The notes under the pieces: model-generated | What the model saw: the letters and a program-made list of their open reading frames with translations, nothing else | Told to the model about the DNA's origin: nothing | The model's database searches: none | Program-made: the position numbers and the translations under genes | Part shown: one piece after another, positions 9,146-35,606 of the stretch | How the letters are laid out: every line of letters begins with the position of its first letter | Numbering within the stretch: the stretch's first letter is position 1 | From: a virus | Taxonomy: Duplodnaviria > Caudoviricetes | Virus record (IMG/VR): IMGVR_UViG_3300012920_000040 | Span: 1 to 61,804 of that record | Strand: one strand, 5' to 3' | Length of the DNA stretch: 61,804 nt

Positions 9146-9405
9146 GAATTTTAAATGAAGCATGTGACCCTGAGGTTGCAACAGATAAGTCACTACCTAA
9201 CAATGCTTTTCTTGTCAGTTATGTGGAGAAGGATGAGCAAAAGTATGACCTTGTTATGTCCAGTAAAAAGGTAGACATTTTTGACTACTACTGGGATAAG
9301 TACAAGGAAGGTTTGCTTGATATCAAACAAGCAGAGGGTACTATCAATCCTAAACTGTGGAAGTCACAGGAAGAGATGAAGAAAGAAGCAGCAAAAAAGA
9401 AATGA
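9142..9405 (+). CDS. Conserved cyanophage hypothetical protein
   Basis: 87 aa, TTG start after GGAGG, FDYYWD motif. Confidence 0.8.
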   Translation: MRILNEACDPEVATDKSLPNNAFLVSYVEKDEQKYDLVMSSKKVDIFDYYWDKYKEGLLDIKQAEGTINPKLWKSQEEMKKEAAKKK

Positions 9406-9593
9406 ATATTGATAAGGATAAGGGATTTGATGTTGACTTTGACATTCCAAAGGATCAAGTCCAAGAACTTCTTAAGAAGTATAAGAAGATCAAGAAGTAT
9501 CAGAAGTCTTCACTCTTTGCTGTGAAGACCATGGATGGTACTGAGAAGGTTGTCTCCAAGATGATTGAGGAGGCAGAGGAGGAGGGATTTTGA
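9402..9593 (+). CDS. Hypothetical protein
   Basis: ATGA-coupled to upstream gene. Confidence 0.7.
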   Translation: MNIDKDKGFDVDFDIPKDQVQELLKKYKKIKKYQKSSLFAVKTMDGTEKVVSKMIEEAEEEGF

Positions 9594-9793
9594 GAGTCCC
9601 TCTTGAGCACTATGAGGAGGGTGGTAGACCCAGAGACCCTGAGTACATCCTCATGCTCATCTCAGAACTAGAAGGGTCCTATCAGTCCCTGAAGTTCATG
9701 GGTTTCAAAGAAGATGCTGAGATCATCAATGAGATGAAGAAACCATACTACAAACTTTACTTCAAGACCAAGAAAGAAAGGGGCTTGACATAA
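9590..9793 (+). CDS. Hypothetical protein
   Basis: 67 aa, TTGA-coupled, GGAGG SD. Confidence 0.7.
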   Translation: MRVPLEHYEEGGRPRDPEYILMLISELEGSYQSLKFMGFKEDAEIINEMKKPYYKLYFKTKKERGLT

Positions 9794-9814
9794 ATAGCTA
9801 CAATGGTCTATACT
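9785..9814 (+). promoter_or_regulatory. Sigma70-like promoter for the riboswitch unit (nested late-like CATAAATA)
   Basis: TTGACA(9785)-N18-TATACT(9809); predicted +1 near 9821, the start of the aptamer. Confidence 0.8.
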
Positions 9815-9820
9815 AGACCT

Positions 9821-10048
9821 GTCGTTCATCAGACCTTAGGTCTGACGCAAGTAAGTCGCGGAACGGAGCGTTCATCCCATGGCAGAGTTCCTGTTGTACA
9901 CTAGCCTTCTATGTGAAGATGCTGATGCTATCATGCTCAGGATCGAAAAACATGACAGGTTGGAATCCAATATTAAATTGGAACTTGTTAAAACAATTAA
10001 GGAGTCTACTCCTCATTGTCCTTGGGACGCACACGACTAAAGGAACGG
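9821..10048 (+). ncRNA. Double glutamine riboswitch-like element (glnA / Downstream-peptide family)
   Basis: Two CGTTCA...GACGC...GGAACG cores (9823-9865; 9869-10047), stems TCAGACC/GGTCTGA, TCCCA/TGGGA, AGTCG/CGACT; upstream of a YRG-motif gene. Confidence 0.85.
9879..10040 (+). CDS. 53-aa ORF embedded in the riboswitch stem-loop (not in ORF track)
   Basis: MAEFLLYTSLLCEDADAIMLRIEKHDRLESNIKLELVKTIKESTPHCPWDAHD; GGAG at 9865-9868. Confidence 0.7.
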   Translation: MAEFLLYTSLLCEDADAIMLRIEKHDRLESNIKLELVKTIKESTPHCPWDAHD

Positions 10049-10080
10049 ATTAAAAACCCAACTACTTTAGGAGTAAACTA

Positions 10081-10248
10081 ATGAACACACTCAACCTCAT
10101 TAGAAAGCAGATCAAAAAGGCAGCTGCCCTTCATGATGCTCAGATCAGTCACACCTCATATCGTGGTGTTGAGTATGATACTCGTTGTGTAGAGTCTAAA
10201 GAGACTCATGGCACCTTCTGCTACCGTGGAAAGACTTATTCAAAGTGA
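10081..10248 (+). CDS. DUF4278-type small protein (IF17/GifB-related), 55 aa, not in ORF track
   Basis: MNTLNLIRKQIKKAAALHDAQISHTSYRGVEYDTRCVESKETHGTFCYRGKTYSK; two YRGxxY motifs; AGGAG SD. Confidence 0.85.
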   Translation: MNTLNLIRKQIKKAAALHDAQISHTSYRGVEYDTRCVESKETHGTFCYRGKTYSK

Positions 10249-10277
10249 TTGACAATCACAACTGAATAGTTTATACT
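10249..10277 (+). promoter_or_regulatory. Sigma70-like promoter
   Basis: TTGACA-N17-TATACT. Confidence 0.8.
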
Positions 10278-10304
10278 GGGAGGACTTATATCCTCCCTTT
10301 TTTT
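10278..10304 (+). terminator. Rho-independent terminator of riboswitch/DUF4278 unit
   Basis: GGGAGGA-CTTATA-TCCTCCC followed by T7. Confidence 0.9.
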
Positions 10305-35356: not shown

Positions 35357-35539
35357 ATGAGAAGAGAAACCAGACAATCTATGGAAATGTTATTTGCTGC
35401 GAAATGGAACTTACCCAAAGCGGCAAACAACTGCAATTTAACCTTAAAGGAGATGAAAATCACATTTAATGAATATTGCAATTTAAACCCTCCTACCTAT
35501 AATGAGAAAGGTGAATATATTGGGAGTGTGGCGGAATAG
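35357..35539 (+). CDS. Conserved cyanophage hypothetical protein (overlaps tRNA)
   Basis: MEMLFAAKWNLPKAA..C.LT.KEMKITFNEYC. Confidence 0.7.
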   Translation: MRRETRQSMEMLFAAKWNLPKAANNCNLTLKEMKITFNEYCNLNPPTYNEKGEYIGSVAE

Positions 35540-35606
35540 GTAGACGCACCAGACTTAAAATCTGTTGAGCATTATGCTCGTGGGGGTTCAATTCCCCCCA
35601 CTCCTA
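35522..35606 (+). tRNA. trnL: tRNA-Leu(TAA), CCA not encoded
   Basis: Acceptor GGGAGTG/CACTCCT, anticodon loop CTTAAAA, long variable arm GAGCA/TGCTC, T arm GGGGG-TTCAATT-CCCCC. Confidence 0.95.

Follow-up and report, generated by a model that had tools for sequence, protein, structure and literature searches.

A predicted two-unit glutamine riboswitch with a common helix and a gene nested in one hairpin, heading a small mRNA of an ocean cyanophage

The sequence of an ocean cyanophage (the window, a 61,804-nucleotide stretch analysed in full) points to a small mRNA headed by a predicted glutamine-sensing RNA switch in which two sensor units have one helix in common. A hairpin of the switch wraps a real 53-codon gene, so that identical letters act as sensor and as codons (Table 1). 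Judged by its nucleotides the element is a variant of a known riboswitch class, predicted to bind the ligand of that class, and the layout of the variant is new. The layout is also common: tblastn matches the nested protein to 311 phage records, 307 of them with a coverage of at least 80%, and 147 distinct elements were retrieved. The isolate S-SM2 is among the phages that carry it. Our reading as a whole, namely a double-unit glutamine riboswitch with a nested bound fold, ON control of a downstream DUF4278-like gene and a further gene in its loop, seems to us on balance probable. Riboswitch aptamers are usually compact and non-coding, and lie upstream of the gene that they control. In the literature searched we found no aptamers with a common helix, no conserved gene within an aptamer hairpin and no set of five codons dictated by a sensor; nor was the layout itself described there.

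Between 9823 and 10048 the window sequence holds two glutamine-aptamer units, each consisting of CGUUCA, a hairpin, CGC, an 11-nt linker and GGAACGG. The pattern CGTTCA-N10-30-CGCA-N8-12-GGAACGG occurs once in the window (0.00 expected from 100 shuffles), and the only two copies of GGAACGG on both strands of the 61.8 kb are within this element. Every component listed in the original prediction, which had been made from the letters of this DNA, was found where it had been placed, including the absence from either core of a P3 hairpin of its own: both units lack a third stem, their linkers pair with each other instead, and the sole third helix joins the linker of unit 1 to that of unit 2. Independent aptamers in tandem would each be structurally complete alone; here the third helix exists only between the units.

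Table 1. Features of the element and its flanks, with window positions
Feature	Position	Strand	Remarks
Sigma-70-type promoter, TTGACA (9785-9790), 18-nt spacer, TATACT (9809-9814)	9785..9814	+	consensus scan, 11/12 matches
a: first CGUUCA, 5' strand of P1/PK helix of glutamine aptamer	9823..9828	+	aligns to RF01739 positions 3-8; G5-A9 invariant in A1
Unit 1 hairpin UCAGACC-UUA-GGUCUGA	9829..9845	+	equals P2 of glutamine-I, P1 of glutamine-II
CGC groove strand (9846-9848), then AAGUA with loop-E strand AGUA (9850-9853)	9846..9853	+	RF01739 consensus match
L1: AGUCG, 5' strand of shared helix	9854..9858	+	pairs with 10034-10038
a': first GGAACGG, 3' strand of P1/PK helix	9860..9866	+	invariant in A1; partner 9823-9827 (interlocked) or 9869-9873 (nested)
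GGAG, ribosome-binding site of nested ORF	9865..9868	+	shares last two G of first GGAACGG
b: second CGUUCA	9869..9874	+	invariant in A1
UCCCA, 5' strand of unit 2 hairpin stem	9875..9879	+	pairs with 10023-10027; last base is A of nested ORF AUG
Nested gene, 53 codons, phrog_504	9879..10040	+	tblastn, PHROG, pS/pN
UGGGA, 3' strand of unit 2 hairpin stem	10023..10027	+	within codons W49-D50 of nested ORF
Unit 2 CGC (10028-10030) and 3-nt connector	10028..10033	+	sequence; connector ACA here, AAA in most relatives
L2: CGACU, 3' strand of shared helix	10034..10038	+	in codons N/H52-D53 and first base of stop
CUAAAG, predicted 5' strand of SD-sequestering helix	10037..10042	+	overlaps L2, loop-E triplet, first G of second GGAACGG
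AAA, predicted loop-E partner of AGUA	10039..10041	+	GAA in relatives with UGA stop; GAA form fits GAAG of RF01739 consensus
b': second GGAACGG	10042..10048	+	invariant in A1
CUUUAG (10065-10070), predicted 3' strand of sequestering helix, overlapping AGGAG ribosome site (10069-10073)	10065..10073	+	pairs with 10037-10042
DUF4278-like gene, 55 codons, phrog_545, presumed regulated gene	10081..10248	+	PF14105 sub-threshold; PHROG 123.3 bits
Terminator-like hairpin (10278-10297), then T run	10278..10304	+	consensus scan; function predicted

The helices were evaluated in a main sample of 147 unique elements from relatives (136 with an ORF-size loop, 11 with a short hairpin) and in an alignment of 109 sequences, A1. 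Most loci (L051-L170) were retrieved with GACGCAAGTA and CGGAACGG fixed in the search pattern, which makes invariance there a matter of construction; the 48 loci found via the protein carry identical letters at the same positions. The shared helix AGUCG/CGACU, proposed in the original prediction as the link between the cores, is paired in 147/147 unique elements and 100% paired in A1, with compensatory changes at two positions: five elements carry AGUCA/UGACU and two AAUCG/CGAUU, giving seven double compensatory cases, and another five have G-U forms. The unit 2 stem UCCCA/UGGGA, for which a covariation test had been proposed, changes on both sides at all five of its pairs in A1, and its first four pairs are present in 146 of the 147 unique elements, in 10 combinations. 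The unit 1 hairpin is variable in sequence and keeps its pairing in relatives; in A1, two-sided changes affect its third pair in 13 sequences and its fourth pair in 7. Jointly, the scores of the three tested helices are reached in 0 of 500 shuffles, with 97.7% of cells paired in A1 versus 30-51% in slid controls. The four P1-type strands never vary, and covariation is therefore silent on which of them pairs with which.

The loop of the unit 2 stem holds an intact ORF, as had been claimed, and stem covariation together with a clear coding signature identifies it as a real gene. Its protein matches phrog_504 (84 bits, category 'unknown'), and 130 relatives make up one BLAST family; a Pfam search gave no match, an Atlas search gave unnamed clusters only, and the AlphaFold2 model consists of two helices (pLDDT 76.6). 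ORF-size loops have a length that is a multiple of three in 131 of 136 cases. The interior of the ORF has a pS of 0.661 and a pN of 0.291, versus a pS of 0.000 for the last five codons, where 2080 pairs contain zero synonymous changes because these codons are aptamer nucleotides; the earlier proposal that the end of the ORF supplies the 3' aptamer strands thus agrees with the substitution pattern. So does the assignment of GGAG as its Shine-Dalgarno sequence with the distribution of that motif, which follows the presence of the ORF (131/136 unique elements with an ORF-size loop versus 0/11 with a short hairpin; Fisher p 3.7e-13, kinship ignored). At four loci (L044, L075, L089, L108) the nested ORF ends 15-28 nt early and the RNA motif is intact. 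Different small genes are found among the relatives in the unit 1 hairpin loop, in the unit 2 hairpin loop and in the joint between the units.

Assignment to the glutamine riboswitches draws on two published systems. In glutamine-II, according to the consulted part of its structural description (PMC6698751), CGUUCA, CGC and GGAACGG build the glutamine pocket, which is essentially the same in glutamine-I; C19 pairs with G41, and the family is known to have a capping pair that joins the junction strand to the base following GAACG. By analogy, we infer that the phage variant would bind L-glutamine. The strands of the glutamine-I P1 helix, CGUUC/GAACG, are present here in two copies each, with a hairpin right after each CGUUCA, and both hairpins covary. 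The order AGUA, AGUCG/CGACU, A/GAA reproduces a P3 flanked by AGUA and GAA, as a long-range helix and not a hairpin, and loop E (AGUA with A/GAA) probably forms. The segment 9846-9853 fits the RF01739 consensus CGGAAGUA except for a G to C change, CGC being the form in the glutamine-II consensus; with this change the phage long-range capping pair can be C:G (CGC...GAACGG), versus G:C (CGG...GAACGC) in 33 listed cyanobacterial singlets. In unit 2, C209 and G210 of CGC are invariant and C211 is at least 90% conserved in A1, with CGA in a few relatives (e.g. L125, L130).

The Synechocystis gifB/IF17 leader, a glutamine-I or glnA RNA (RF01739), has the strands CGUUCA, a hairpin, ACG-AAGUA, a third helix and GAAGGAACG in common with the phage element, as far as the consulted text of PMC6212724 describes it; a DUF4278 gene follows in both, and the ON logic, in which the ribosome site is freed, is probably common as well. 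That source presents both glutamine riboswitch types as ON switches ahead of DUF4278 genes. The phage differs in that its third helix is not a hairpin, its second strand lying 175 nt off and the helix enclosing a second set of pocket strands and a gene, and in that the predicted sequestering helix draws on loop E, G35 and the 3' strand of P3 instead of the tail after P1. With glutamine-II (Downstream-peptide motif, RF01704; PMC6698751, in the part consulted) it shares the CGC groove strand and GGAACGG, the position of the element ahead of short DUF4278 ORFs, known from marine picocyanobacteria, and, in unit 1, the placement of GGAACGG between the strands of the following helix. That order is the one of the glutamine-II H-type pseudoknot, and the invariant strands give no partner; the distance differs, about 170 nt (the second unit and the gene) separating the phage GGAACGG from the 3' strand of the helix.

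The Rfam search suggested along with the original prediction gave a divided result. The window stays under the cut-offs, with 22.6 bits for RF01739 at 9821-9869 (gathering cut-off 35), nothing that reaches gathering, and no RF01704 match at E up to 10 (gathering cut-off 33), yet 7 of 9 natural ORF-less relatives pass RF01739 in the nested reading at 38.4-43.6 bits. RF01704 scores of relatives are 20.1-30.6 bits in one set and 25.4-32.7 bits in another, all under 33, the exceptions among the nine compact relatives being L095 (35.7) and L080 (34.0); a stand-alone unit of 'C-GGAACGG' type in L113 scores 35.1 bits. Standard Rfam scans miss the gene-bearing form, so that the extent to which phages exploit nitrogen signals of the host may be underestimated. 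Cooperative or two-site glutamine sensing could be studied in the natural compact forms, and competition between translation and ligand sensing on a single mRNA in those that bear the gene.

The original prediction did not include what reads, from its base pairs, as the expression platform: a helix CU(A/G)AAG/CUU(U/C)AG that would sequester the Shine-Dalgarno sequence of the DUF4278-like gene. Of 143 unique elements, 140 have all six pairs; in A1 pairing of the helix reaches 99.8%, its variable pair being AU in 47 sequences, GC in 43 and GU in 19. A nested-gene stop UAA always occurs with CUUUAG (56/56), and UGA occurs with C or U. The MFE structure (-75.8 kcal/mol, z -2.76) includes this helix. 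GAG comes directly after the 3' strand of the helix in 132 of the 143 elements, and an ATG lies 9-11 nt downstream of that strand in 137. In ensemble calculations L1 and L2 have an unpaired fraction of 0.3 for a transcript ending at 10050, and of 0.7 and 0.4 once the sequestering 3' strand is present. By masking the ribosome site of the DUF4278-like gene in competition with the 3' half of the aptamer, the helix makes a glutamine ON switch most likely. The gene itself had been called DUF4278-type; it does resemble PF14105, at 23.1 bits and E 9.4e-5, but falls under the gathering cut-off of 25.3, and 'DUF4278-like' is hence the better name. Among relatives, 24 of 32 match PF14105 at E of 0.01 or less (best 1.2e-5).

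In the mechanism that we favour, the bound fold is most likely nested: the first CGUUCA would pair with the last GGAACGG (9823-9827/10043-10047), giving a canonical glutamine-I three-way junction with the shared helix as P3, and the inner GGAACGG and CGUUCA would close a second, permuted unit inside the outer junction. The inner helix is closed by just 3-4 nt in this fold, which may crowd a second ligand site. With ligand absent, the six-pair helix 10037-10042/10065-10070 would hide the ribosome site of the DUF4278-like gene; a glutamine-stabilised fold would claim the 5' strand of the helix for the aptamer, leaving the site free. The DUF4278-like protein is related to glutamine-synthetase inactivating factors, and high host glutamine would in this way turn on its translation. 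In the nested gene the ribosome site falls in the 2-nt joint, the AUG in the stem and the last five codons in the aptamer, so that a ribosome and the folded sensor should be mutually exclusive on any one mRNA, and a ribosome terminating at the nested-gene stop would also open the sequestering helix. Repression of the nested ORF by folding, and unfolding of the aptamer by its translation, as suggested earlier, would follow from this geometry; by partition function, accessibility of the nested ribosome site and AUG shifts little with transcript length. The nested fold has a computed energy of -70.0 kcal/mol versus -64.5 for the OFF skeleton. Such energies cannot separate it from an interlocked fold, since the latter is a pseudoknot and beyond ViennaRNA scoring.

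An interlocked arrangement was the form in which the cores had first been described, and the data allow it as one of two topologies. Each CGUUCA would pair with its neighbouring GGAACGG (9823-9827/9861-9865 and 9869-9873/10043-10047), as in the glutamine-II pseudoknot, and the shared helix, whose covariation does support that part of the original proposal, would bridge the units as a pseudoknot with a ligand site stacked on each of its ends. The succession CGUUCA, hairpin, CGC, helix 5' strand, GGAACGG, helix 3' strand is the order of the glutamine-II consensus, and strand exchange between two molecules was seen in the glutamine-II crystal (both from the consulted part of PMC6698751). The two linkers are of equal length, unit 1 takes its local fold in the MFE structure and would be the first to form as the RNA is transcribed, local units pass the RF01704 cut-off in 2 of 9 compact relatives, and the stand-alone unit of L113, being of the same type, favours local pairing. 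We nevertheless consider interlocking rather unlikely. RF01739 favours the nested reading, giving local units only 24-34 bits, and the conserved AGUA and GAA fit loop E only if the unit 1 CGC serves the helix with the last GGAACGG. The second CGUUCA, moreover, starts 2-3 nt past the first GGAACGG in 145 of 147 unique elements, a joint that, in interlocked units, must reach across the entire shared helix and that, in nested ones, is of ordinary hairpin-loop length.

It is improbable, in our estimate, that the outer glutamine-I junction is the single working aptamer and the inner set a decayed duplicate, a stable spacer or the start region of the nested gene. There is just one loop E (AGUA with GAA), RF01739 handles the inner unit as a mere P3 insertion, and the tight closure of the inner helix and the occasional CGA in unit 2 point the same way; but CGUUCA and GGAACGG of the inner set do not vary in any of the 109 sequences of A1, where a spacer hairpin would be expected to covary like the unit hairpins, nor do they in compact forms without the nested gene. 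More improbable still is a riboswitch-derived leader that no longer senses glutamine and acts through translational coupling of the two genes, or through mRNA stability or processing. The nested-gene stop lies within the sequestering 5' strand, so that termination could by itself free the downstream site, and the window scores under the Rfam cut-off. Against such a loss of sensing, all pocket nucleotides from the solved structures are unchanged though the nested proteins are only 50-58% identical, and the compact forms, which have no nested gene to couple, retain both leader and sequestering helix.

A bolder extension of the favoured mechanism, which we regard as rather unlikely, would make the double aptamer both a device with two inputs and a landing pad for genes. 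The helices acted on by glutamine would be those acted on by ribosomes that translate the nested gene. Translation of this gene early on, while transcription is under way, would keep the sensor from closing and would itself expose the downstream ribosome site, and once translation ceased the RNA would fold, the start of the nested gene would be shut, and control of the DUF4278-like gene would pass to host glutamine. If this is true, two ligand sites on one common helix might give a steep response, and riboswitch loops might be a recurrent niche for phage insertion and expression of new microproteins.

Tandem glutamine riboswitches are known: Sherlock and others (PMC9481103) report 157 doublets and 4 triplets, with two or three aptamers placed serially before one gene, as here. 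The tandems in the available part of that paper are separate neighbours with pseudo-cooperative control, and no nested gene is mentioned in it; the phage units, by comparison, share a covarying helix. Some of the doublets may nonetheless have the present arrangement. A glnA RNA is also listed for the cyanomyovirus S-CREM1, as a single ordinary element of 99 nt and 44.0 bits (PMC9964418, Table 4, in the part consulted); compared by these published figures alone, its length and score resemble those of the compact nested forms (87-97 nt, 38-44 bits). In a cyanobacterial sample with few marine picocyanobacteria, RF01739 hits at or above cut-off occur in 92 of 151 genomes, and the 33 best-scoring loci listed are all singlets with their own P3 hairpin. 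A loose host-genome pattern, CGCAAGTA-N6-GGAACGG, gave at least 120 loci in 596 Gb of contigs; there was no real aptamer among the matches listed, 4 of 120 lying near GTTCA by chance.

The original prediction gave the element its own transcription unit. The promoter (11/12 matches) and the terminator-like hairpin speak for this, and by the promoter position the transcript should start at about 9820-9822, immediately before the first CGUUCA. TTGAY-N15-19-TANNNT is present 60 nt or less upstream of GTTCA in 111 of 152 unique relatives, with a gap of 7-10 nt between -10 box and GTTCA in 108 of the 111. The -35 box, on the other side, overlaps the final codons of the upstream gene (stop at 9791-9793) and no terminator was predicted over 9300-9785, so read-through from upstream is possible and the unit is only in part shown to be independent. 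No NtcA box of the form GTA-N8-TAC lies within 9700-9830. Among sequencing runs none contains half of the words of the stretch, and the largest share in RNA libraries, present there as contigs alone, is 0.04. In four RNA libraries, relatives are represented by contigs that span the DUF4278-like gene and conserved portions of the aptamer; one of these contigs has a compact form. They give neither strand nor start site and do not prove transcription. A second promoter-like site at 10249-10277 overlaps the start of the terminator-like hairpin, and one relative (L059) is arranged alike.

The window covers part of the genome of a T4-like cyanophage, an assignment resting on a PhotoRC-II RNA (positions 1-86, clipped by the window start; 41.7 bits against a cut-off of 39), a tRNA of 85 nt whose extra arm is long (35522-35606; 59 bits), and Synechococcus myoviruses as the nearest relatives. 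The element array predicted at 9785-10304 was found in full and comprises two units, bounded by the strands CGUUCA and GGAACGG (a and a' in unit 1, b and b' in unit 2) and followed by a DUF4278-like gene. GGAACGG occurs in the 61.8 kb only at a' and b', and the composite motif CGTTCA-N10-30-CGCA-N8-12-GGAACGG occurs once, against 0.00 expected. Rfam at gathering cut-off makes no call in 9785-10304; under relaxed thresholds unit 1 matches the glutamine-I riboswitch model (glnA RNA, RF01739) end to end, scoring 22.6 bits where the cut-off is 35.

Elements of the riboswitch region (window coordinates, + strand)
Feature	Position	Basis
Promoter TTGACA-18-TATACT	within 9785-10304, first element	11/12 consensus matches
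a, CGUUCA	9823-9828	sequence
Unit-1 hairpin	9829-9845	sequence
CGC-AAGUA	9846-9853	sequence
L1, AGUCG, then C	9854-9858	sequence
a', GGAACGG, then AG	9860-9866	sequence
b, CGUUCA	9869-9874	sequence
UCCCA; final base is first base of the 53-codon ORF's ATG	9875-9879	sequence
53-codon nested ORF	9879-10040	ORF call
UGGGA	10023-10027	sequence
CGC-ACA	10028-10033	sequence
L2, CGACU, then AAA	10034-10038	sequence
b', GGAACGG	10042-10048	sequence
55-codon DUF4278-like ORF	10081-10248	domain search
Terminator-like hairpin	10278-10297	prediction

The protein of the nested ORF, a phrog_504 member by PHROG match with a predicted fold of two helices and a low-confidence tail, is matched by tblastn, at identities below 60%, in 311 phage records; in 307 the match spans 80% or more of the protein. 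By way of this protein we fetched 48 IMG/VR loci and phage S-SM2, and at least 120 further loci were fetched with the DNA pattern GACGCAAGTA-N5-CGGAACGG; removal of duplicates left 147 distinct elements with both units. Letters inside the pattern are fixed by construction in the pattern-fetched loci, and the protein-fetched loci, free of this bias, carry the same conserved letters. The layout is widespread in cyanomyoviruses.

Both long-range helices of the original prediction are real, as compensatory changes among these relatives show. L1 and L2, the strands proposed to link the two cores, pair in 147/147 elements (AGUCG/CGACU 135, AGUCA/UGACU 5, GGUCG/CGACU 4, AAUCG/CGAUU 2, AGUCG/CGAUU 1), and L2 was absent from every search pattern used. 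The stem closing around the ORF (UCCCA/UGGGA in the window) keeps its first four pairs in 146/147 elements through ten combinations, including UCCU/AGGA (17), CCCC/GGGG (4) and GAUU/AAUC (1). Covariation was counted in 109 distinct sequences aligned with MAFFT, with 500 shuffles and slid-partner controls: 97.7% of cells were paired, versus 93.4% in shuffles and 30-51% with slid partners, and 9 pairs were changed on both sides versus 3.3 in shuffles, with none of the 500 shuffles attaining any of five measures. In this alignment L1/L2 is 100% paired with two pairs doubly changed, and all five pairs of the ORF-closing stem are doubly changed.

Covariation is silent on the partners of a, a', b and b' because these four strands are invariant, and folding energies do not separate the two possible arrangements. 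We lean somewhat toward a nested fold, with a paired to b' and a' to b. RF01739 reads compact, ORF-less relatives as a single glutamine-I junction of canonical form, in which L1/L2 serves as P3 and the inner unit is a 38-48-nt insert; 7 of 9 such relatives thereby score 38.4-43.6 bits, above the cut-off, versus 24-34 bits for local units. AGUA and GAA flank L1/L2 as expected of loop E, and the a'-b joint has an ordinary hairpin loop length (2-3 nt in 145/147), both of which we count for nesting. The originally proposed interlocked double aptamer, with a paired to a' and b to b', keeps its shared-helix link; in its favour, the element order is that of the glutamine-II pseudoknot, the two linkers are 11 nt each, and unit 1 folds locally first; moreover, local units pass the glutamine-II cut-off (Downstream-peptide RNA, RF01704; 33 bits) in 2/9 compact relatives, and a stand-alone unit of the same type exists in relative L113. 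We regard interlocking as rather unlikely.

The nested ORF is a gene whose ends are overprinted on the sensor. The 130 ORFs from unique elements form one BLAST family, 127 of them with an ATG directly after CGUUCA plus four bases and all with a C-terminal xDA(N/H)D or near variant, and 131/136 long loops are a multiple of three in length. In the 65 sequences that are 53 codons long, mean pS was 0.661 and mean pN 0.291 for interior codons, as opposed to a pS of 0.000 across 2080 pairs in the last five codons, which had been predicted to supply the 3' aptamer strands. Codon choice is similarly frozen in the tail compared with the interior: GAC for Asp (253/256 versus 74/379), GCA for Ala (129/129 versus 169/405) and AAC for Asn (109/111 versus 57/262). 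In four relatives (L044, L075, L089, L108) the ORF stops 15-28 nt early, leaving the xDAND tail untranslated with aptamer letters unchanged, which indicates that the constraint acts on the RNA. The a'-b joint reads AG, creating GGAG, in 131/136 ORF-carrying and 0/11 ORF-less elements (uncorrected for relatedness), marking GGAG as the ribosome site of the ORF. The original interpretation is therefore supported in part, namely for the long-range helices, the ORF as a gene, its GGAG and its overprinted tail.

The window layout, with a short hairpin in unit 1 and an ORF in unit 2, accounts for 103 of the 147 elements; 29 have a loop of ORF size in each unit (as do 2 more in which the first CGUUCA falls outside the fetched DNA), 3 an ORF in unit 1 only, 2 an extra insert between units, and 8 are compact with short hairpins in both. 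The compact elements are each ~90 nt long and immediately precede the DUF4278-like gene; the base architecture thus occurs without a nested gene. The unit-1 ORF (31 unique cases, including L039, L041, L055, L060 and L063) is a small gene distinct from that in unit 2, 65-68 codons long in 27/31, beginning MLxxLLA with its ATG in the stem's 5' strand and its stop (UAG, UGA, or UAA then GA) in the 3' strand, 2-3 nt ahead of CGC in 23/31; these stems covary (UCUC/GAGA, UCUU/AAGA). In two relatives (L124, L164) the inter-unit joint, normally 2-3 nt, holds an insert of 64 or 99 nt, possibly with a very short ORF. L113 is a three-unit array of a stand-alone unit (RF01739, 35.1 bits), a gene-holding unit and a closing unit, the last two sharing a covarying AGUCA/UGACU helix.

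The expression platform, absent from the original prediction, is probably a sequestering helix between CU(A/G)AAG (10037-10042), made of the final two bases of L2, the last two of the stop codon, an A and the opening G of b', and CUU(U/C)AG (10065-10070), a strand that shares bases with AGGAG, the ribosome site of the DUF4278-like gene. All six pairs form in 140/143 unique elements with sufficient downstream DNA. A UAA stop faces U in 56/56 cases and UGA faces C or U; in the alignment the helix is 99.8% paired, its variable pair being AU 47, GC 43 and GU 19. The minimum-energy fold of 9821-10085 includes it (-75.8 kcal/mol, z -2.76). With the transcript ending at 10050, L1 and L2 are mostly paired in the ensemble (0.3 unpaired), and adding the 3' sequestering strand frees them (0.7 and 0.4 unpaired). 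Given this release and the strand overlap, aptamer and sequestering helix compete for 10037-10042. Because glutamine riboswitches preceding DUF4278 genes are described as ON switches (PMC6212724; PMC6698751), ON would be the natural direction here. Nine relatives (L047, L049 [S-SM2], L058, L081, L098, L111, L116, L136, L148) carry a ~40-nt insert with its own hairpin, e.g. GGAUCCUGCGAAAGCAGAGAAGG, downstream of the last GGAACGG and ahead of the sequestering strand, so the loop of this helix also tolerates insertions.

RF01739 scores above cut-off in 92/151 sampled cyanobacterial genomes, and each of the 33 host hits inspected is a singlet that has a P3 hairpin of its own. P2, which in phage is the gene-bearing hairpin, differs in length among them, and their long-range pair is G:C, in contrast to C:G in phage. 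Cyanophage glnA RNAs and tandem glutamine riboswitches are already published (PMC2864571, PMC9964418, PMC9481103). A literature search excluding Ames and Breaker 2011 and Ren et al. 2015 found no published shared helix, nested fold or gene inside the aptamer. The window element appears to be a glutamine riboswitch of novel architecture, whose gene-carrying form is invisible to routine scans.

GTA-N8-TAC, the NtcA-box pattern, occurs 24 times in the window versus 12.05 expected (0/100 shuffles reach 24), with none of the 24 near the riboswitch promoter. The -10 box of that promoter lies at the centre of an inverted repeat, GGTCTA-TAC-TAGACC (9805-9819); relatives have the same type of repeat in other letters (e.g. 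GGTATATAATACC, GTGTTATAATAACAC, GAGTCTATAATGACTC), and it therefore appears to covary. A second strong promoter-like site, TTGACA-17-TATACT (11/12 matches, within 10249-10304), directly follows the DUF4278-like stop, its -10 box adjoining the terminator hairpin; its transcripts would be without the hairpin's 5' arm, and those from upstream would run into the complete terminator. Relative L059 has this arrangement too.
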